Of a DNA stretch of 64,000 bases, positions 6,980-49,054 are shown one piece after another. The notes under the pieces are model-generated. The model made no database searches and was not told the origin of the DNA. It was given only the letters and a program-made list of their open reading frames with translations. Position 1 is the stretch's first letter. Each line of letters starts with the position of its first letter. Origin of the DNA: a virus; IMG/VR virus record IMGVR_UViG_3300035698_017437, positions 64,001 through 128,000 of that record. One strand, written 5' to 3'. The translations under genes and the position numbers were made by a program.

Positions 6980-8683
6980 ATGGACCAACTCCAGAAATAC
7001 ATTCACCTGAGCAAGTATTCCAAGTGGGTAGAAGAATTATTACGACGAGAAACTTGGACAGAAACAGTAGATAGATATATTGATTTCTGGAGAAATAGAT
7101 ATGATCTTTCAAATAATGTCCTAAAAGAAATCCGAAAATCTATATTGAATCTTGAAGTAATGCCTTCCATGAGAGCCTTAATGACCGCAGGCAAAGCTCT
7201 TGAAATTGATAATATGGCTGGTTTCAATTGTACAGCAACAGCAATAAATCACCAAGCTGTCTTTTCTGAAGCTTTTTATATTTTAATGTGTGGATCGGGC
7301 CTGGGATTTTCTGCGGAAAGGCAATACATAAACAAACTTCCTGAAGTAGCTGAAACATTGTATCCATCGGATACAATTATCAATGTAAGAGATTCTAAAA
7401 TAGGTTGGGCTACAGCACTCAAAGAATTGATTTCTTCTCTTTATAATGGAACAATTCCAAAATGGAATCTTGAGAAAATTCGTCCTGCTGGTTCAAGATT
7501 GAAAACCTTTGGGGGTAGGGCATCTGGCCCAGCTCCTCTTGGAAAACTATTCAATCAAGTTGTACAAATATTCAAGGGAGCAACAGGAAGAAAATTGAAT
7601 TCCATTGAATGTCATGATCTGATGTGTTTTATAGCCGATGCTGTAATTGTCGGAGGAGTTAGGAGAAGTTCGTTAATTTCTTTATCAAACTTGACAGATG
7701 ATAGGATGAGAAGAGCAAAGAATGGACAATGGTGGGAGATTAATCCTCAAAGAGCTTTAGCTAATAATTCCGTAGCATACACTGAAAAGCCAGATCTTGC
7801 CGCTTTCTCAAAAGAATGGAGATCTCTATACACATCCAAATCTGGAGAAAGAGGTATATATAATAAAGAACATGCTTATCTAAAATGTGAGGCATTAGGT
7901 AGAACAGAAAATTTCAATGGATCATTTATTCCCAATCCTTGTGCTGAGATATTACTTAGAGACACAGGCGGCGGTTGTAACCTATCTTCTAAAATTATTC
8001 GCCAGAATATCTCATTTCAAGAAATGTTGGATGGATTGAGAATAGCAACTATTATCGGAACACTTCAATCAACTTTGACTGATTTCAGGTTTTTGAGGAA
8101 AGTATGGAAGGATAATTGTGAAGAGGAGCGGCTTTTAGGTGTATCTTTGAATGGAATAATGGATAATAAAATCTTTTCTAATATGGCATCAAGAGAGGAG
8201 TTTGTTGAATTTTCGGGTGATGAATCGCTTGATTGTCTTGCTAAAATCCTTGACCATATGAGAGCTTACTGTAGGACTATAAATGTAAAATGGTCAAAGA
8301 AATTGGGAATAACTCCATCTAAAGCTATAACTACAATAAAGCCAGAAGGCTGTTTGGAAATAGGATCAAAAATACGAACCTCAGAAGGAGCAAAATCCAT
8401 TGAGGATTTTTTCAAGGATTCTGGAATAGATTTACTTTTATTTGAAGGTAGTAAGGATATATGGTTTAAACCCGATATTTCATATAAAGTATACAATCGT
8501 AATAATAAGGAAGTGGATGTGTCAAAATTGTATTATAATGGAATACCTAAAGAAACAGTAAAATTAAATTTTGAGGATGGAACAGAACAAAATGTTACTC
8601 CAGATCACAAGTTTGAGACTATTTCGGGAAAATTTGTGAAGGCTAAAGATCTTACAATGATGGATGATATTAAATCCTTTTAA
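6980..8683 (+). CDS. nrdJ: class II (B12) ribonucleotide reductase N-terminal part fused to split-intein N half
   Basis: RETWTETVDRY, MPSMRAL, VGGVRRS, NPCAEI, TTIKPEG, then intein start CLEIGSKI. Confidence 0.93.
   Translation: MDQLQKYIHLSKYSKWVEELLRRETWTETVDRYIDFWRNRYDLSNNVLKEIRKSILNLEVMPSMRALMTAGKALEIDNMAGFNCTATAINHQAVFSEAFYILMCGSGLGFSAERQYINKLPEVAETLYPSDTIINVRDSKIGWATALKELISSLYNGTIPKWNLEKIRPAGSRLKTFGGRASGPAPLGKLFNQVVQIFKGATGRKLNSIECHDLMCFIADAVIVGGVRRSSLISLSNLTDDRMRRAKNGQWWEINPQRALANNSVAYTEKPDLAAFSKEWRSLYTSKSGERGIYNKEHAYLKCEALGRTENFNGSFIPNPCAEILLRDTGGGCNLSSKIIRQNISFQEMLDGLRIATIIGTLQSTLTDFRFLRKVWKDNCEEERLLGVSLNGIMDNKIFSNMASREEFVEFSGDESLDCLAKILDHMRAYCRTINVKWSKKLGITPSKAITTIKPEGCLEIGSKIRTSEGAKSIEDFFKDSGIDLLLFEGSKDIWFKPDISYKVYNRNNKEVDVSKLYYNGIPKETVKLNFEDGTEQNVTPDHKFETISGKFVKAKDLTMMDDIKSF
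8351..8680 (+). mobile_element. split intein N fragment (IntN, about 110 aa)
   Basis: Cys1 block A CLEIGSKIRT, block B VTPDHKF, terminal VKAKDL...DDI then stop. Confidence 0.9.
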
Positions 8684-8897
8684 ATCCTTAGACCTATAGT
8701 TAGAAATCAAATTTCATAAAGAAATACGACAAGGAGATAAATTGAGGTATCTGTTTGTTTTAGATAGGATTAAGAACCATTTAATCATTTGGGAATCGGA
8801 ATACAATAAGGACAGAAACAAATGTTTAGAAGATTTAATAATAACAATAAAGGAAATGAGAAATGAGATTGAGCCAAAATCCAGTAATAGAGAGTAA
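8664..8897 (+). pseudogene. degenerate Vsr/DUF559-like endonuclease between the intein halves
   Basis: one frame reads MILNPFKSLDL*LEIKFHKEIRQGDKLRYLFVLDRIKNHLIIWESEYNKD...; IIWESE is a Vsr-like C-terminal motif. Confidence 0.6.
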
Positions 8898-9519
8898 TGG
8901 AATACTTACATTAGACATAGAAACAGACGATACTCATACCTACCAATTGGCTAATGGATGTGTTAGTCATAACACGTCTTCTCTTCTTGTTGCTAGTTCA
9001 TCTGGTATTCATCCAAGAGAATCTTATTGGTATATCCGAAGAGTTCGCCAAGATAAAAAAGATCCTCTATCCATGTTGATGATTGATCAAGGAGTTCCCT
9101 ATGTAGATGATGGAGATAAATATATTTTCACTTTCTATATTGAATCTCCTTCACATTCAATAACTAAAGAGCAAATGGGCGCAATAGATCAATTGGAATT
9201 GTGGAAGATTTATGCTACTCATTGGACGGATCATAATGTTAGCCAGACTATATATTATACAGAAGATGAGTATTTTGCTGTTGCTGATTGGGTATGGAAA
9301 AATTGGGATATCATATGTGGATTGAGTTTCTTTCCATCTTCTGATCATATATATGAAAATGCTCCTTTAGAAACTATTACCAAAGAAGAATATGATAAAG
9401 CAATGGAAACCTATCCAATAATTGATTTTAGTAAATTAGTAAATTTTGAACATGAAGATAATACCAGTACCAATGAATTAGGAGTTGCCTGCACGGGCGG
9501 GACTTGTGAAGTACTCTAA
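8863..9519 (+). CDS. nrdJ: split-intein C half (37 aa) fused to ribonucleotide reductase C-terminal part
   Basis: TLDIETDDTHTYQLANGCVSHN|T then SSLL..SSGIHP, DHNVSQT, terminal ACTGGTCEV. Confidence 0.93.
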   Translation: MRLSQNPVIESNGILTLDIETDDTHTYQLANGCVSHNTSSLLVASSSGIHPRESYWYIRRVRQDKKDPLSMLMIDQGVPYVDDGDKYIFTFYIESPSHSITKEQMGAIDQLELWKIYATHWTDHNVSQTIYYTEDEYFAVADWVWKNWDIICGLSFFPSSDHIYENAPLETITKEEYDKAMETYPIIDFSKLVNFEHEDNTSTNELGVACTGGTCEVL

Positions 9520-9976: not shown

Positions 9977-10057
9977 TTGACTTCTAATTCTATACATGTT
10001 ATAATAGTGTATACCGTAAAGGAGAAATACACATAATTCAAAATGGAGAACAAAATG
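9977..10057 (+). promoter_or_regulatory. early promoter/leader cassette copy
   Basis: TTGACT-17-TATAAT...TAATTCAAAATGGAGAACAAAATG. Confidence 0.9.
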
Positions 10058-21499: not shown

Positions 21500-22141
21500 A
21501 TGAGTGAAATTTCAATTACAAGAGCTTTAGTGAAAATCAAAACCCTTCGGTCTAAGATAGAAAAAGGATCAAAGGCAATGGCAGTTTGTTCAGGATATCA
21601 AATTCAGGGACAACCAATTATTACAAGAGCTGGTCAAGTAAAAAATGCTGATATTCTTCAAACAGATATTAGTAAACGATGGCAAGCTGTGAATGATTTG
21701 ATGGATCTATATATCAAAATTCGAGAGGAGATCCAGAAATCTAATGCCGTTACTTTAGTTACAGTTGGAAAAAATAAAATGACCGTAGCAAAAGCCATTT
21801 TCATGAAAGAATTAATCTCGGATGAACGAGTTCCCCTTGCCTCTGTTGTTCTGAAAGATATCAATAACTCTAAACTACTGGTTCAGAAAAGGATAGAGGA
21901 TAATGATGAACGACTAACCGAACTTATCAAAAGCTCATTTCAAGGGAAATCAACTAAAATCTCTGATTCTGAATTTGAAGCAATTGCCAAACCTTTCAAT
22001 AAGAATAACAAAGTTGAATTCATTGATCCTTTTGGTATGGAAACAAAAATTGAAAAGGTTATTAATCAAAATGAAGAATTCCTTGAGGATATTGATGTTG
22101 TGTTAAGTGAATCTAACGCAAAAACAACGATTGAAATATAA
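21500..22141 (+). CDS. coiled-coil protein, DIP1984-like
   Basis: ISITRALVKIKTL...IQKSNAVT.V...MTVAKAI...DVVLSESNAKTTIEI two-repeat helical pattern. Confidence 0.6.
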   Translation: MSEISITRALVKIKTLRSKIEKGSKAMAVCSGYQIQGQPIITRAGQVKNADILQTDISKRWQAVNDLMDLYIKIREEIQKSNAVTLVTVGKNKMTVAKAIFMKELISDERVPLASVVLKDINNSKLLVQKRIEDNDERLTELIKSSFQGKSTKISDSEFEAIAKPFNKNNKVEFIDPFGMETKIEKVINQNEEFLEDIDVVLSESNAKTTIEI

Positions 22142-22175
22142 GGGGAGTCATATCTAACAGATATAAATAAGTACA

Positions 22176-22476
22176 TAAAGTATTATATTGAAACTGACTA
22201 AAAAGATATTCTCCTCAAATTGGAATAAGAGGTTAACATAAATTCCGCAACTAATTGCCTCAAACGCAATCTATTGATACAGCCTATAAAGCTGAACCGT
22301 TTCTGTAAAGTTTACAAAATCAAAAGATTAATGTTCAACAATTAGCGAGAAAAGTTTATACAATTACACCAAGAAAAATTAGAGAATAAAGATTGATTGA
22401 ATCTTGTGTATGGGTTTAGTAGGAAATTAGAATATCACGTCCTCAGTCAGTACCATCAAGCTGATAGAATACTTTA
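22176..22476 (+). ncRNA. structured RNA of about 300 nt downstream of the coiled-coil gene
   Basis: nested long-range pairs taaagtatt/aatacttta, ctgact/agtcag, gatattct/agaatatc, actaa/ttagt; TATAAATA at 22162; no ORF. Confidence 0.7.
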
Positions 22477-22484
22477 CTTTTTAT

Positions 22485-22561
22485 GGCGCAATAGCCCAAT
22501 TGGCAGAGGCAATGGTTTTAGAAATCATGTGTTGTAGGTTCAACTCCTACTTGCGCTACCA
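22485..22561 (+). tRNA. tRNA-Leu(TAG), short variable loop
   Basis: ggcgcaa/ttgcgct, atggt-tttagaa-atcat, ACCA. Confidence 0.85.
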
Positions 22562-22577
22562 TAAATTATAAATAAGA

Positions 22578-22652
22578 GCGTTCTTAGTATAAAGGTTATT
22601 ATTCTTGGCTTCCACCCAGGAGATGAGGTTTCGAGATCCTCAGAACGCTCCA
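22578..22652 (+). tRNA. tRNA-Gly(TCC)
   Basis: gcgttct/agaacgc-TCCA, cttgg-cttccac-ccagg. Confidence 0.85.
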
Positions 22653-22662
22653 ATAGTTTTAT

Positions 22663-22730
22663 GTTCCTCAGGAGGCAGAGTCGATGACTTAATCATATTG
22701 TCGGAGATTCGAATCCTTCCTGAGGAACCA
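22663..22730 (+). ncRNA. degenerate tRNA-like element
   Basis: ttcctcagga/tcctgaggaa-CCA, TTCGAAT T-loop, shrunken atga-cttaa-tcat arm, no D stem. Confidence 0.5.
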
Positions 22731-22738
22731 AATTTTAT

Positions 22739-22814
22739 AGCGGGATAGAGCAGTTGGTAGCTTGCCAGCCTCATAAGCTGGAGGTCGGGAGTTCGAATCT
22801 CCCTCCCGCCACCA
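22739..22814 (+). tRNA. tRNA-Met(CAT), initiator-like
   Basis: A1:C72 mismatch, ccagc-ctcataa-gctgg, ACCA. Confidence 0.85.
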
Positions 22815-22837
22815 AATTTTTATTCATAGGATACATT

Positions 22838-22999
22838 ATGAAAGAAGAAAAGACAGTGAATAAAGAAAAGAAGCCTTATACCTCTCCTAAACTTGTTATC
22901 TTTGGTTCTGTCACAGAACTAACTCAAGGTACAGGTGGATCATGTTATCCTCCTCAACCTCCTGGCTCTCCAGGTATGCCTTGGGATCCTTGCTCCTAA
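22838..22999 (+). CDS. RiPP precursor-like peptide with lasso-type leader
   Basis: KKPYTSPKLVIFGSVTELTQ|G matches YxxPxLxxxGxxxxxTx-G. Confidence 0.8.
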   Translation: MKEEKTVNKEKKPYTSPKLVIFGSVTELTQGTGGSCYPPQPPGSPGMPWDPCS

Positions 23000-23056
23000 A
23001 TGAAATAAAGTGTATAGCGTAAATGAGAATACCTAATTCAAAATGGAGAATCCAAA

Positions 23057-23662
23057 ATGAAATATTCAGTAACTAAAAATGGCGAAGCTTTATCTACTAA
23101 ACTTTATTCCTTTGATGAAAAAACCAGAACATTTTCTTCAAACGAGGAAGGTCTTGTTTTGGATTTCCATACTTTACATTGCGTTACATTCAATACAGGA
23201 TCATCTTGTACATTCAATACAGGATCATCTTGTACATTCACTACAGGATCATCTTGTACATTCACTACAGAATATAATTGTACATTCAATATAGGATCAT
23301 ATTGTACATTCAACTGTGGATCAGATTGTACATTCAAAACTGGATCATTTTGTACTTTCAAAACTGGAATATATTGTACATTCAATACAGGATCATCTTG
23401 TACATTCAATACAGGATCATCTTGTACATTCAATACAGAATATGATTGTACATTCAATACAGGAGCACATTGTATATTCAATACAGGATCCGATAGTGTA
23501 TTCCTTACAGAATATGATTGTACATTCCTTACTGGGTCTAACGGTGTGATTGTCCGTAGAGATATTTTAGAAGTTATTCATCTAGAAGCGGATGTACCAA
23601 TTGTACTGAATGGATATGAAGAAATGGGATACAAAGAGGTAAAGCAGTCAAAAATGAAATAA
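23057..23662 (+). CDS. octapeptide-repeat (CTFNTGSS) beta-solenoid protein, paralog 1
   Basis: about 15 tandem 24-nt units; N-terminus shared with ORF 37718. Confidence 0.8.
   Translation: MKYSVTKNGEALSTKLYSFDEKTRTFSSNEEGLVLDFHTLHCVTFNTGSSCTFNTGSSCTFTTGSSCTFTTEYNCTFNIGSYCTFNCGSDCTFKTGSFCTFKTGIYCTFNTGSSCTFNTGSSCTFNTEYDCTFNTGAHCIFNTGSDSVFLTEYDCTFLTGSNGVIVRRDILEVIHLEADVPIVLNGYEEMGYKEVKQSKMK
23180..23540 (+). repeat. 24-bp coding tandem repeat
   Basis: unit tgtacattcaatacaggatcatct. Confidence 0.9.
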
Positions 23663-23676
23663 ATTGTATTTTAGTG

Positions 23677-23753
23677 TTGACTTCTCATTCTATACATGTT
23701 ATAATTACATATACCGAATGAGAAATACCTAATTCAAAATGGAGATCAAAATG
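23677..23753 (+). promoter_or_regulatory. early promoter/leader cassette copy
   Basis: TTGACT-17-TATAAT...AATGAGAAATACCTAATTCAAAATGGAG. Confidence 0.9.
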
Positions 23754-24074
23754 AGCAATTCAATTACAGTAGAACATCCTTCCTTCCGACAATGGTTTTC
23801 CGATTGTCAACTCATGTGTGACAAATATAACGCAAAGCAATTTCCCAACCTTGTAAAAAACAATGAAATTCCTGACCTTATAATTTCAAATAGGGGCCGA
23901 AAATATATCAAAATAATTCTTAGCAATTCTGTATGGGCTTTCATCAACAAAGAAAACGGTGATATTTTGAAACCTGCTTCTTGGAAAGCTCCTGCCAAAA
24001 TAGCCAGGGGAAATATATTTGATGAATATAAAGGAATGAAATCAATGAGTCCTTATGGACCAGCTTATCTTTAG
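23751..24074 (+). CDS. conserved phage early protein
   Basis: GRKYIKI..SVWAFI....GDILKPASWKAPAK.ARGNI motif. Confidence 0.65.
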   Translation: MSNSITVEHPSFRQWFSDCQLMCDKYNAKQFPNLVKNNEIPDLIISNRGRKYIKIILSNSVWAFINKENGDILKPASWKAPAKIARGNIFDEYKGMKSMSPYGPAYL

Positions 24075-32849: not shown

Positions 32850-33124
32850 TATCCAATATGTTATAATTGAAAAAATTATCTGAACCCTAAATGGAGAGAA
32901 CGAATGAAAAAATTAAAATTCTGGCGTAAACGATCAAAAAATATTCATCTTGCGGATAACAAATTAACAAAAGCTGAAATTGTGGGATTTCTGGGAGAAA
33001 GAGGATATGACCAAAGTAGATCTGTTAAATTGACTCTAAGAACATTGAAAATCATTTGGTCTAACCTCAACAAGAAAGATGCTAGAAAAGCTCAAGAGCG
33101 TATGATAGCAGAAGGGAGTTGGGT

Positions 33125-33619
33125 ATGATTCTGCTTGATTTTAATGCCATTGCAATTGCGACTATCATGATACAACTAAGTCAGGATGAATCAATTGTCA
33201 ATGAGGATTTCATTACTCATTCCATACTCAACTCCGTAAGAAAAAGAAATAAACAATTTAGAAATGAATATGGCAAAATGGTTATCTGTTGTGATTCAGG
33301 AAATGTATGGAGAAAAAAAGTATTTCCATTATATAAAGCAAATCGTCTGAAGAATAGAGAAAAGGATGATTATGATTGGGATATGATCCATGAGGCTATT
33401 CACAAAACCGAAGAGGTTTTGAGGATGAGTTTTCCTTATCTTGTAATGAAAGTTGATACTGCTGAAGCTGATGATATTATTGCTCGGTTGAGTTATAATA
33501 TTTTTGAAGAGAAACCTAATGTTATAGTTTCAAATGATAGGGACTTCCTTCAACTAATCTCGCCTTCATGTTCAGTATTTAGGCCCACATCTGAAGAGAC
33601 TATAATATTCAAGCCTTGA
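33125..33619 (+). CDS. rnh: T4-type RNase H / 5'-3' exonuclease, N-terminal part
   Basis: ILLDF, D...WRK...P.YKANR, EADDII, IVSNDRDFLQL. Confidence 0.9.
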   Translation: MILLDFNAIAIATIMIQLSQDESIVNEDFITHSILNSVRKRNKQFRNEYGKMVICCDSGNVWRKKVFPLYKANRLKNREKDDYDWDMIHEAIHKTEEVLRMSFPYLVMKVDTAEADDIIARLSYNIFEEKPNVIVSNDRDFLQLISPSCSVFRPTSEETIIFKP

Positions 33620-34277
33620 TTATTTCCCATCCTTCAGTTAGTAATCCTTTTTCTGTTAATCTAGTGGCCTTTTTATTAGGTTTAATAACACCTTTGTTTA
33701 TATTTCCATATAAGCGGGAAAATGATAAACCATGTTTTTTTGAGAACGAGGCCAATTCTCCATGAATATTATATAATATTCCAAGAGGAGAAATTATATT
33801 ATATTTTTGAGCATGTTTATTGTTTTTCCCTTTACAAGCTTTAGAGCAGGCTGTATGGATATTATTTCTTTTATTTATGTCTGGTACTCTGATATGTAAG
33901 GGTATTCCAAAAGAGGGATTCTTTTCTCCGGACAAAGCAAAACTCAATTTATCTCGGGTTTCTTCTGAAATTGTTAGACCTCCCTGACCGCCTAGACCTC
34001 CCGTCTTGACATTATATGTGCTTCTAGAGTCTACAAAGGCAGAATCTACAAGATCTCTTTCCTTAGAATATGCTGATGTTTCTGAAACAAAAGAGAATAA
34101 TACTATTTTACTGAAATTATCTTTTCCATATTTTTTTATAGCTCTCAAAAGAATCTTGCCAGATCCTAAATAAGAATCGTTTGGATCTGTAGTAGAGTGT
34201 TTGCCAACATATATTTTTTGATTCACTAAACAAGTTGTTTGATATACTGTATGATAAATAGTTTTAGCTTGAGACAT
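33609..34277 (-). mobile_element. free-standing GIY-YIG (Seg-like) homing endonuclease with NUMOD3
   Basis: VYQTT.LVNQKIYVGKH...YLGSG..L..AIKKYG..NF, YN...GG; SEETRDKLS..GEKNP; RBS ggag before ATG 34277. Confidence 0.9.
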
Positions 34278-34306
34278 TTCTAACTCCATAGAAAAGTTTT
34301 AGGTTA

Positions 34307-34356
34307 GAAAAGAAAGTTGTTGACGCAACTTTCTTTTCGTGTTATAGTTATTTATA
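34307..34356. promoter_or_regulatory. divergent promoter/hairpin element
   Basis: + strand TTGACG(34320)-17-TATAGT within inverted repeat gaaaagaaagttg/caactttcttttc; - strand TATAAATA at 34349-34356. Confidence 0.7.
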
Positions 34357-34391
34357 TAAATTGAATTATAACTCTAAGAAAGGAGAAAACA

Positions 34392-34841
34392 TTGAAAAGA
34401 ATAATGATGGAGCCTAATGATATCAAAAGAACTTTATTTGACCATTTTTGTAGAGGCGACTCTTCTGATGGTATTCCCAATATTGTTTCAGATGAGGATG
34501 TTTTCATTTGTGAAGAGAAGAGACAGAAATGTATATTTGCTAAAAAGTTAGATATTTGGTATCCTTTATATGTTGAAAGTCCTTCTTTATTCTTCAAAGA
34601 AATTGGTCAGGAAATGTCTGTCAAATTTGAAAGGAACAGAATTCTGATTGATTTGAATAAAATTCCTGAAGATCTAATTATATCTATCAATAATGAATTT
34701 GAAAATGAATGTAAGTTGCCTTGTCCTGGCAAAATGGAGATTCTCAACTATTTTGCTAACAATAAAATGAAACTTCTTGCTAGTTGTGTTGGAGATTTCA
34801 CAGGACCGACAAGAACTAATTCATTAGCTGAATTTCTATAA
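34392..34841 (+). CDS. rnh: T4-type RNase H, C-terminal part
   Basis: RGDSSDGIPNI (H3TH), FERNRILIDL..IP; own RBS aaggag + TTG. Confidence 0.9.
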   Translation: MKRIMMEPNDIKRTLFDHFCRGDSSDGIPNIVSDEDVFICEEKRQKCIFAKKLDIWYPLYVESPSLFFKEIGQEMSVKFERNRILIDLNKIPEDLIISINNEFENECKLPCPGKMEILNYFANNKMKLLASCVGDFTGPTRTNSLAEFL

Positions 34842-37246: not shown

Positions 37247-37717
37247 TATGTTATAATAGTGTATACCGTAAATGAGAAAAACAATTCTAAAGGGTGGTTA
37301 TTATGATTGAATATGAAATTAAAATTGAACGAGCTTTTCCATTATATCCTTCTGAGAAAATAAAAATAGATTTCTGCTTTGCTGACAGTATTAGCGAGGC
37401 AAAACAGGTGATGAATCATATATATGGTGAAATGATATCTTTTATCTATGTTCGGGAGTTTTGAATGACAAATATAGAATTTGAAGAAATCTTATCCGGT
37501 CTTGTTCAAGAATATAAACCCTTTGAATCTAAAAAATTGGTATCTTTTCTTCGGAAAGATGATGCTTTAGATTATGATGGTTGGATAGAGTTCTATAAAA
37601 TATTGAATGAGTTGGATAATGGTTTGTGTACTTGGTACGAGGCCTTAGATGATTTATTATTTTTATTAGCATAGCGTATAGAAAAGATAAAACACATACT
37701 TCAAAATGGAGAACAAA

Positions 37718-39828: not shown

Positions 39829-40227
39829 ATGAAGAAAATTATAGTATTATTCTGTTTGATGTTCTTTTATACATCCTCGGCTCAAGCATTCTTTTGGACT
39901 TATGAAGAAAAGGATCCTTATAATATCCTAATGTATGTTGAAGATGATATTGAGGAATGGTTATGTATTCTATATGAATTTGATACCACTAGATTCATAG
40001 GAATAGGAGATCAAGTATTCAAAGAATTTATTGAAACCCATGATCCTGAACCGATGCCCTGGAATGTATATTCTTATGAATGGGAGTGTTTACCTAGAAA
40101 TTGGGAATGGGCTTGGACATGTTTTGACACTTCTGATTGTAATCCTGTTCCTGAACCAGCCACATTGTTGTTATTTGCTATTGGTATTATTGGAATATCC
40201 ATAGGATATAAGAAAAGAATGAAATAA
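39829..40227 (+). CDS. PEP-CTERM sorting-domain protein
   Basis: signal peptide ending AQA; C-terminal PVPEPATLLLFAIGIIGISIGYKKRMK. Confidence 0.92.
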   Translation: MKKIIVLFCLMFFYTSSAQAFFWTYEEKDPYNILMYVEDDIEEWLCILYEFDTTRFIGIGDQVFKEFIETHDPEPMPWNVYSYEWECLPRNWEWAWTCFDTSDCNPVPEPATLLLFAIGIIGISIGYKKRMK

Positions 40228-47791: not shown

Positions 47792-49054
47792 ATGAGCACA
47801 ATTCAATTACGAAGAGGAACTAAAGCACAATTAGATACCATTTCTCTTGCTGTTGGTGAATTAGGATATACTACAGATACAGACGAAGTGTATGCTGGTG
47901 ATGGAACTAACAATCATCTAATTGGTGGTGTAGGAGTAGGTTTAGCTTCAGGTCGACCCTCAGCAGGAGTATCAGGAAGAATTTATCACGAAACGGATAC
48001 GGATGCTACCCTTGTGGATGATGGTGTTTCTTGGGTGAATATTAGCTCTACCCTTGATCTTTCAACTATATCTGGAGATCTTGATGATATTGATGATGGT
48101 ATAGGATACGGTAAAGTATTACAAACAGAACTATCGAATGGTGTAGTTTCTCAAATCAATGATGAAACTAATGTTGTAACTGCCTCAGAGGCAAGAACTC
48201 ATATTGATTTGACTGATGGGCATGAATCTATAAATGATTCTGGAACTTCTACTTCAGAATTATGGTCTTCACAAAAAATTGGTGATGAGATTGCCACGGT
48301 AGTTTCAGGTATAGATCCCCAAGAATCTGTTATTAGTCAATTGAATCTTGTTACATCTGAACCAGCTATTCCAACTATTGGTGATAGATATATCAATACA
48401 GCCTCAGGAGACACCTCTACAACTTCCCAAGCTGTATTAGTCAATAACATTTATGAGTGGAATGGCTCTGATTGGACAGAAACAATAGTATCAGAAGGAA
48501 TGCATACTTGGGATGAAACTCTTGATTCTGCCTATATATTCAATAACTCTTGGGTAAAATTTGGATCAACAGTAACACATAATAATCTCTCTAGTCTCCA
48601 AGGTGGAACTACAGATCAATATTATCATGTTACTGCCTCTGAAAAAACTGTTGTATCTAACACTTCAGGAACAAATACAGGAGATCAAGCTTCAGGTGAT
48701 TTTGATCATGATTCTCTTGTCAATACACATAATCTAACAACTGATATCAACCACGCAACAATTACTGGTGGTCATAATCTAACAACTGATATTGATCATA
48801 ATAATATCACAAATAGTCATAATCTAACCACCGATATTGACCACGATTCTCTATTGAATTTTCAATCAGGAGAACATTTTCTTCAAGGAGCAATCAGTAT
48901 TCCGTCAGGGCAAATATCAGATTTCAACGAAGCTTCTCAAGATTCTATTGGTGGAATACTAACAGACACAGTTTCTATTGATCTTACGTATGATGATGCT
49001 GGAGGAACAATCAAAGCTGACCTATTGTTGGCTGATGGTGGTACATTTGTATAA
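47792..49054 (+). CDS. tail fibre protein with Mtd-N/hyaluronidase-N-like domain
   Basis: IQLRRGT......L..GELGYTTDT..V..GDG; HNLTTDIDH repeats; terminal DGGTF. Confidence 0.7.
   Translation: MSTIQLRRGTKAQLDTISLAVGELGYTTDTDEVYAGDGTNNHLIGGVGVGLASGRPSAGVSGRIYHETDTDATLVDDGVSWVNISSTLDLSTISGDLDDIDDGIGYGKVLQTELSNGVVSQINDETNVVTASEARTHIDLTDGHESINDSGTSTSELWSSQKIGDEIATVVSGIDPQESVISQLNLVTSEPAIPTIGDRYINTASGDTSTTSQAVLVNNIYEWNGSDWTETIVSEGMHTWDETLDSAYIFNNSWVKFGSTVTHNNLSSLQGGTTDQYYHVTASEKTVVSNTSGTNTGDQASGDFDHDSLVNTHNLTTDINHATITGGHNLTTDIDHNNITNSHNLTTDIDHDSLLNFQSGEHFLQGAISIPSGQISDFNEASQDSIGGILTDTVSIDLTYDDAGGTIKADLLLADGGTFV

Follow-up and report, generated by a model that had tools for sequence, protein, structure and literature searches.

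A lasso-type precursor-like gene with no ring acceptor, next to the tRNA block of a predicted T4-type phage

RiPP precursors are usually seen as parts of bacterial gene clusters. In kinase-tailored lasso clusters, according to the accessible part of one source, phosphorylation by the kinases takes place on the C-terminal Ser while the precursor is still linear and precedes the action of B2 and C; the same source describes class III lasso peptides as carrying a ring-to-tail disulfide on top of the isopeptide ring (PMC9266682). A different use of lasso-like leaders is found in LPP systems in which, going by the available sections of the report, YxxP leaders direct linear, cyclase-free products and work with an RRE and an HprK-like kinase (PMC13381572). 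These sections, which concern Bacillota, give the leader consensus as YxxPxVLxHQxIxFETxxS and the cluster set as a SipW-like signal peptidase I, an RRE, a kinase resembling HprK, an NTP transferase and an exporter of the MsbA-like type. They also state that YxxP leaders are able to bind RREs other than their cognate ones, that competition between leaders for RREs acts as a genuine constraint, and that means of avoiding this interference have evolved in cells (PMC13381572). In the literature searched, judged by titles and abstract openings, no phage-encoded lasso precursor is described. Here we analyse a phage gene whose product combines a lasso-type leader with a core that could not form the lasso ring.

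The window, that is, the whole analysed stretch of 64,000 nucleotides, covers bases 64001-128000 of a 141,960-bp IMG/VR record that is about 78% complete. PHROGs matches in the window include a gp32-like SSB, a helicase loader, an RNA ligase, RtcB and ribonucleotide reductase on the replication and nucleic acid side, and baseplate hub and wedge, tail tube, DNA end protector and head closure proteins on the structural side. Judged by this gene content, the phage is of the T4 type; by gp32, its nearest isolates are T4-like cyanophages at approximately 40% identity. Neither an integrase nor psbA was found. The sequence-only reading had described the phage as lytic, with which the T4-type replication and baseplate modules and the failure to find an integrase are consistent. 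A search of the Atlas for host clues returned only unnamed small-protein clusters.

Several other genes in the window deserve mention in their own right. Ribonucleotide reductase is encoded in two pieces, the ORFs 6980-8683 and 8863-9519 (each phrog_367, together region 6980-9519), and an exonuclease of phrog_107 (33119-34841) is interrupted by a homing endonuclease gene on the minus strand (33609-34289). A 420-aa protein (47792-49054, plus strand) contains an N-terminal Mtd_N domain (major tropism determinant, 50.3 bits), which hints at a receptor-binding protein of the retroelement-diversified type.

The ORF under study starts with an ATG at 22838 and ends with a TAA at 22997-22999, and its predicted product is MKEEKTVNKEKKPYTSPKLVIFGSVTELTQGTGGSCYPPQPPGSPGMPWDPCS (53 aa). 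It follows the last gene of a three-tRNA block after a gap of 23 nt (Table 1). Terminator-like sites were not detected in 22100-23800, a segment that includes both the tRNA block and the ORF, and the two are probably carried on the same transcript.

Table 1. Coordinates of the precursor-like ORF, its predicted parts and the adjacent features in the window
Feature	Position	Strand	Basis
tRNA-Leu, first of the Leu-Gly-Met block	22485-22561	+	ARAGORN, Rfam
tRNA-Gly, middle of the Leu-Gly-Met block	22578-22652	+	ARAGORN, Rfam
tRNA-Met(cat), last in the three-tRNA block	22739..22814	+	ARAGORN, Rfam
Shine-Dalgarno-like AGGA, 6 nt 5' of the ORF ATG	22828..22831	+	direct sequence reading
53-codon ORF plus stop, lasso-family precursor-like gene	22838..22999	+	translation, HMM, codon use
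Predicted leader, residues 1-30	22838..22927	+	NF033521 match to residues 14-32; alignment
Predicted core, residues 31-53 (23 aa)	22928..22996	+	alignment A3
Conserved promoter-proximal motif GTGTATAGCGTAAATGAG, part of the next gene	23010..23027	+	motif count, alignment

The tRNA block contains an additional 86-nt element (22653-22738, plus strand) between tRNA-Gly and tRNA-Met, with a long stem that ends just before a CCA. Its predicted fold is strong (-31.6 kcal/mol, z = -5.07, with 0/200 shuffles as good), and neither ARAGORN nor Rfam assigns it to any class. A degenerate tRNA is one candidate identity for the element and a small stable RNA is another, RNAs of the latter kind being known from the tRNA cluster of T4.

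The codon use of the ORF fits that of a translated, resident phage gene. Its CAI is 0.695, compared to 0.716+-0.034 in 41 phage genes, which places it at the 36th percentile when phage genes are cut into windows of 53 codons; this value is attained by just 1.6% of the off-frame windows and by none of 2000 uniformly drawn synonymous-codon versions. Likewise, GC3 is 0.24 in the ORF vs 0.226 in phage genes; instead of long residence, mutation bias or a donor low in GC could lie behind the low GC3, and some of the codon signal could be imitated in this way. The codon signal, together with the HMM statistics given below and the library-wide E-values of 6e-6 to 8e-4 to lasso precursors, weighs heavily against non-coding RNA or an ORF that arose by chance, even though the ORF is short and lies within a tRNA cluster; we regard such an origin as extremely improbable. 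Interpretation as an RNA element was specifically rejected given that no Rfam family matches the ORF and that its RNA fold is no better than those of shuffled sequences (z = -0.85).

The region immediately downstream of the ORF belongs to a small set of related sites. The plus-strand motif GTGTATAsCGTAAAkGAG occurs three times in the window (10007-10024, 23010-23027 and 37259-37276) vs 0.03 occurrences expected. The first and third copies directly follow a TTGAC-17-TATAAT promoter; at the second copy, the hexamers of the promoter are degenerate and coincide in part with the final codons of the precursor ORF. The motif and promoter in these three places resemble a shared early promoter with a conserved 5' leader.

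With respect to the peptide itself, the division into a lasso-type leader and a core that had been proposed from the sequence alone was recovered, the leader stretch originally quoted being residues 14-30 and the core residues 31-53. The leader contains Y14-x-x-P17-x-L19, G23 and T29, the latter at -2 before the predicted cut; thus, at the sequence level, it has the RRE-binding YxxPxL motif and the Thr at -2 that are expected of a lasso protein A. The small residue expected at core position 1 is also present, namely Gly31, which follows LTQ; the relatives have G, S, H, K or Q in this position. In an alignment of ten sequences (A3), M1, K11, Y14, P17, G23, L28, T29 and Q30 are invariant in 10/10, and L19 is nearly so. 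Profile comparison, which the sequence-only reading had put forward as a check on its claim, gave a positive result: NF033521 (lasso_leader_L3) gives 21.6 bits, above its cut-off of 19, NF033528 (lasso_cyano) reaches 31.3 bits, below its cut-off of 33, and two more lasso subfamilies score lower. When the complete 141,960-bp record was scanned with NF033521 in six frames, the precursor ORF was the sole match (21.9 bits), and none of 14 control genomes rose above the cut-off. Taken together, these motif and profile matches indicate that the predicted leader is a real lasso leader.

Searches of protein collections place the peptide in the same family. An HMMER scan of 1.84 billion representative proteins produced five non-self matches at E<=1e-3, of which four are short lasso-type precursors with the same leader and an Asp at core position 8 or 9, and the fifth is a long repetitive protein. 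A word-index search for close relatives recovered only the peptide itself, and nothing significant was obtained from Pfam or PHROGs. The lack of any other family match in these two collections, along with the conservation of precisely the residues by which RRE recognition and B2 cleavage are defined, argues against a small phage protein that acts on another host target without an RRE and retains the leader as a historical trace. T4-type phages carry many small early proteins directed against host targets, and a protein of this kind with no partner encoded nearby would fit among them; nevertheless, we consider this explanation quite improbable.

A metagenome scan with a three-sequence alignment identified seven loci with relatives of the phage peptide, whereas a scan with the phage peptide alone yielded no match, nor did a scan of genome contigs with alignment A2. 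On six of the seven metagenome contigs, neighbouring ORFs match one of three families. Asn_synthase, above the cut-off, is encoded upstream of the relatives on L004, L005 and L009; Hpr_kinase_C matches, at 28.7-31.9 bits and hence under the Pfam cut-off of 33.3, lie downstream of the relatives on L004, L006 and L008; and NTP_transf_5 (224 bits) is encoded beside the relative on L003. By family assignment, this is the gene set of kinase-tailored lasso clusters. The leader match, combined with similarity that runs into the core, indicates that the phage ORF descends from a true lasso precursor that has lost its ring acceptor. Jointly with the interpretation of the peptide as a substrate of host enzymes that is developed below, we tentatively trace the ORF to a bacterial precursor of the kinase-associated (paeninodin/'lasso_cyano') type.

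The core is where the phage peptide departs from its relatives. It consists of Gly1, Cys6, Pro8, Pro9, a PPGSP stretch, Cys22 and the C-terminal Ser23 (Ser53 of the peptide), among other residues. The start GTGGS is common to the phage peptide, P0114 and P0120 (P0006 has GSGGS), and PPGSP aligns with PSGTP, PYGTP and PTGTP of the relatives (PxG[ST]P). In a lasso protein A, one of core positions 7, 8 and 9 is expected to be Asp or Glu; in the phage peptide these positions are occupied by Tyr-Pro-Pro, and neither of the two acidic residues occurs ahead of position 20. In the column of residue 39 in A3, Asp, which the cyclase has to activate, is present in 9/9 relatives and Pro in the phage. This replacement of the acceptor makes a canonical lasso, or macrolactam, impossible, in agreement with the original claim that no standard ring could form. 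The two Cys that had been noted in the core are located at positions 6 and 22, without a possible isopeptide ring. The last residue, Ser53, corresponds to the predicted site of paeninodin-type phosphorylation. The possibility of a frameshift was considered and rejected: the other two frames of the core, read by eye, give no lasso-like core or acceptor.

We then asked how common such cores are in the family. A profile search returned 130 proteins at E<=0.01, the best 120 of which are listed; together with the earlier matches, these provide 119 other peptides that could be parsed at the LTQ-type junction, with one unparsable peptide and the repetitive protein left out. Among the matches listed, Asp or Glu is present at core positions 7-9 in 94/119 and absent in 25/119, a C-terminal Ser is found in 44/119, and two or more Cys in 13/119. 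Among the same listed matches, the acceptor is missing in 10 of the 13 peptides with at least two Cys, compared to 15 of the 106 others; by their leaders, these 10 peptides fall into no more than about four lineages (P0093 group, P0069 group, P0068, P0121), so that the enrichment of two Cys among acceptor-less cores is suggestive rather than firm. C-terminal Cys-Ser occurs in four of the 119 other peptides among the matches listed (P0052, P0093, P0096 and P0119) and also terminates a cyanobacterial peptide (L026, see below). Given that this ending recurs in the family, the C-terminus of the phage ORF is probably ancestral despite the overlap with the promoter.

Metagenomic peptides with a lasso-type leader and two Cys but no ring acceptor are P0093/P0096/P0119, P0018/P0069/P0077/P0099/P0102, P0068 and P0121; the contig that carries P0119 is 26.8 kb long. 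Another family member, P0004, has NKEKKPY and a length of 53 aa in common with the phage peptide. A genome scan for the P0093 and P0069 groups returned only ordinary cyanobacterial and actinobacterial precursors, and IMG/VR scans for these acceptor-less two-Cys families found none, except for one match of 12 residues. Another observation concerns P0114 and P0120, in which a lasso-type leader and a GTGGSxxD core are fused to a C-terminal Peptidase_S74 domain (PF13884), a self-cleaving chaperone domain known from phage tail fibres. Three peptides (P0086, P0110 and P0115) have a short tail that begins in a similar way. Such a fusion may be a way to generate a C-terminal Ser.

The intact leader joined to a core that is unusable by the cyclase is the arrangement that would be expected of a pure decoy. 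The sequence-only reading had proposed that the peptide hijacks or jams an RRE-dependent pathway of the host, which is a reasonable conjecture; as a decoy, the leader would occupy the host RRE or B2, the acceptor-less core would stall the pathway, and lasso production by the host would be shut down during infection. In line with this idea, the accessible portion of the LPP study reports that YxxP leaders can bind RREs that are not their own (PMC13381572), and ocean co-expression data link bacterial lasso families to defence systems and phages, in the available part of the source by correlation only (PMC11118758). However, a decoy would not need the conserved features of the core, that is, PxGxP, the Cys pair and the terminal Ser; mature host peptide made before infection would persist; and no antiphage lasso peptide is known from the literature searched, so far as the portions seen tell. 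We therefore rate a pure decoy as improbable.

As maintained in the sequence-only reading for the window, no gene for an RRE, a leader peptidase or a cyclase was detected, and this extends to the complete record: RRE (PF05402), B2 (PF13471) and cyclase (PF00733) have no match at E<=1 anywhere in the 141,960 bp (approximately 78% complete), and the same holds for HprK (PF07475) and NTP_transf_5 (PF14907). About a fifth of the phage genome is missing, so the absence of maturation genes is not proven. If the phage does not encode the maturation proteins, the peptide would be handled only in trans, by host proteins, and an orphan precursor can only act through the host machinery or be a leftover.

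Our leading, still tentative, interpretation is that a captured precursor is served in trans by leader-recognising enzymes of the host, resulting in a linear, disulfide-closable peptide. The precursor gene would be transcribed with the tRNA block, and the leader would dock as a beta-strand on the PqqD-like RRE of the host. The host B2 peptidase would then cut after Q30, and an HprK-like kinase may phosphorylate the terminal Ser53. The released 23-residue Pro-rich core would stay linear, and a Cys6-Cys22 disulfide might close after the core has left the reducing cytoplasm, as at lysis. As long as it is bound, the phage peptide would also compete with the host's own precursors. Against this interpretation stand the singleton status of the gene, the overlap with a degenerate promoter, and a variant in metagenome run X1 that differs upstream of 23037.

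These same observations bear on the main rival, a functionless capture, in which a precursor or an acceptor-less variant was picked up by chance into a plastic tRNA region; by itself this scenario is doubtful, but it is nearly as likely as service in trans. Pieces identical to the ORF stretch are present in contigs of four salt-lake metagenome runs, and the precursor ORF is covered only by these identical pieces. A diverged relative of the downstream gene in run X1 has 28 differences over 186 nt, and its alignment ends at 23037, which hints that the nearest related phage is without the precursor ORF in that place; that a related variant appears to differ upstream of this point is in accord with a stray capture. 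So is the end of the ORF running into the degenerate promoter copy, as are the missing acceptor Asp and the failure to find maturation genes in the phage record. The singleton status would also fit a one-off capture, given that no homologue was found in phage records or IMG/VR. Specifically, tblastn of the peptide against 50,697 phage records gave no match at E<=10, and megablast of 6 kb retrieved only a 52-nt tRNA stretch. In IMG/VR, alignment and protein scans revealed no relative of the peptide or of the leader type except for the match of 12 residues mentioned above, and a strict back-translated DNA pattern of the leader had 0 occurrences. Thus, among the viral sequences searched, the leader type is unique to one phage. 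Two other IMG/VR matches, inside ORFs of 918 aa and 768 aa, were discarded as spurious.

Conversely, a functionless remnant would hardly be expected to keep all eight of the eight invariant family positions, frame-specific codon use like that of phage genes, and a proper RBS, and the Cys-Ser end, which matches other family members, is probably ancestral and not accidental.

The gene downstream of the ORF is itself unusual. It encodes a 201-aa protein (23057-23662, plus strand) composed largely of approximately 14 tandem 8-residue repeats that contain Cys; at the DNA level, the array has a 24-nt period, 14.3 copies and 83% matches. A contig in run X2 skips 315 nt of this array, with three other letters in between, which points to variation in repeat number. 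The single-sequence AF2 model of the protein is all-beta but poor (pLDDT 41.8). The two flanking proteins, of 201 aa and 218 aa, have no relatives in IMG/VR, and the 201-aa protein has none in phages either.

The sequence-only reading had proposed that the precursor might be linked to the gene at 39829. Part of this proposal stands. The gene (39829-40227, plus strand) encodes a signal peptide and a PEP-CTERM sorting signal, with PF07589 at 28.5 bits (cut-off 20.7) and TIGR02595 at 21.4 bits (cut-off 16), and this signal implies a Gram-negative host with an exosortase. No homologues of the protein were found in an index of 5.8 billion proteins. For the link itself no evidence was found: the gene is located 17 kb from the precursor ORF and nothing ties the two together, except that each would depend on processing systems of the host. 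The accompanying remark, that in Gram-negatives such leaders can sit near exopolysaccharide/PEP-CTERM loci, recalls the available part of the LPP report, which places LPP and lasso clusters in capsular loci of Bacilli, a group that is not Gram-negative (PMC13381572).

A broader reading would have a virulent phage provide substrates for two host maturation machines that are not encoded by the phage itself: the acceptor-less, two-Cys peptide for the RRE and leader peptidase, and the PEP-CTERM protein for the exosortase. The peptide would fall within a 'disulfide lariat' branch of the lasso family that has not been described so far, and would be used either to remodel or signal at the surface of the infected cell or to block host peptide production. 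Under this scenario, which we consider unlikely, the Cys-Cys bridge would replace the isopeptide ring and only leader removal would be needed; such a branch seems to have had several origins (P0093 group, P0069 group, P0068, P0121 and the phage). If true, no RiPP precursor of lasso descent would be known from a virus before this one.

Should the phage gene be functional in any of these ways, it would mean that phages can plug their own cores into the peptide-maturation lines of the host, or block them, and would represent a new kind of auxiliary or counter-host gene. If instead it was merely picked up by accident, the gene still documents cleanly a transfer from a lasso cluster into a T4-like phage. 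In either case, the analysis draws attention to the peptides with lasso leaders that are unable to form a lasso, which make up about a fifth (25/119) of the family among the matches listed; in print, as far as the accessible part of the source goes, non-lasso chemistry has been presented for LPP, that is, only for a different type of lasso-like leader (PMC13381572).

Compared with the described systems, the phage peptide is closest in sequence features to the kinase-associated class II precursors (NF033528, NF033521), with which it shares the YxxPxL...G...LTQ leader with Thr at -2 followed by Gly1, the GTGGS start, the PxG[ST]P loop and the C-terminal Ser. Unlike these precursors, it has Pro-Pro and no Asp or Glu at core positions 7-9, so closure of a macrolactam is impossible, and it is encoded by a virulent-type phage without B1, B2, C, kinase or transferase genes in the available record. 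Class III peptides (BI-32169, 9401-LP1) offer a different parallel, in that the phage core has one Cys in the segment equivalent to the ring and another near the C-terminus; BI-32169 has a Cys at ring position 6. However, the phage peptide lacks the isopeptide ring, has an extra C-terminal Ser and is not part of a producer cluster. With LPP, going by the part of that account that was accessible, it has in common a lasso-like YxxP leader on a core that, on the phage side, is predicted to stay linear. In contrast to LPP, the phage leader YTSPKLVIFGSVTELTQG keeps the lasso-type LTQ-G junction and departs from the LPP consensus, with neither HQ nor FET, and the RRE, kinase and NTP transferase of an LPP-type cluster were not found in the phage record.

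The closest counterpart with regard to genomic context comes from cyanobacteria, where matches to the phage peptide at E<=0.01 were detected in 8/401 genomes. The precursor in L026 resembles the phage peptide in having PYTSPKLV in the leader, two Cys and a Cys-Ser end, but it keeps Asp7/Asp8 and belongs to a cell that owns the machinery. Its only neighbours are RTX-repeat and OmpA-family genes, maturation genes being absent over a distance of about 6 kb, while this genome encodes its B2 (Transglut_core3) peptidase on another contig; a Transglut_core3 peptidase is present in all five of the cyanobacterial genomes tested. This layout indicates that unlinked precursors exist in cells that own the machinery and provides a bacterial precedent for service in trans.
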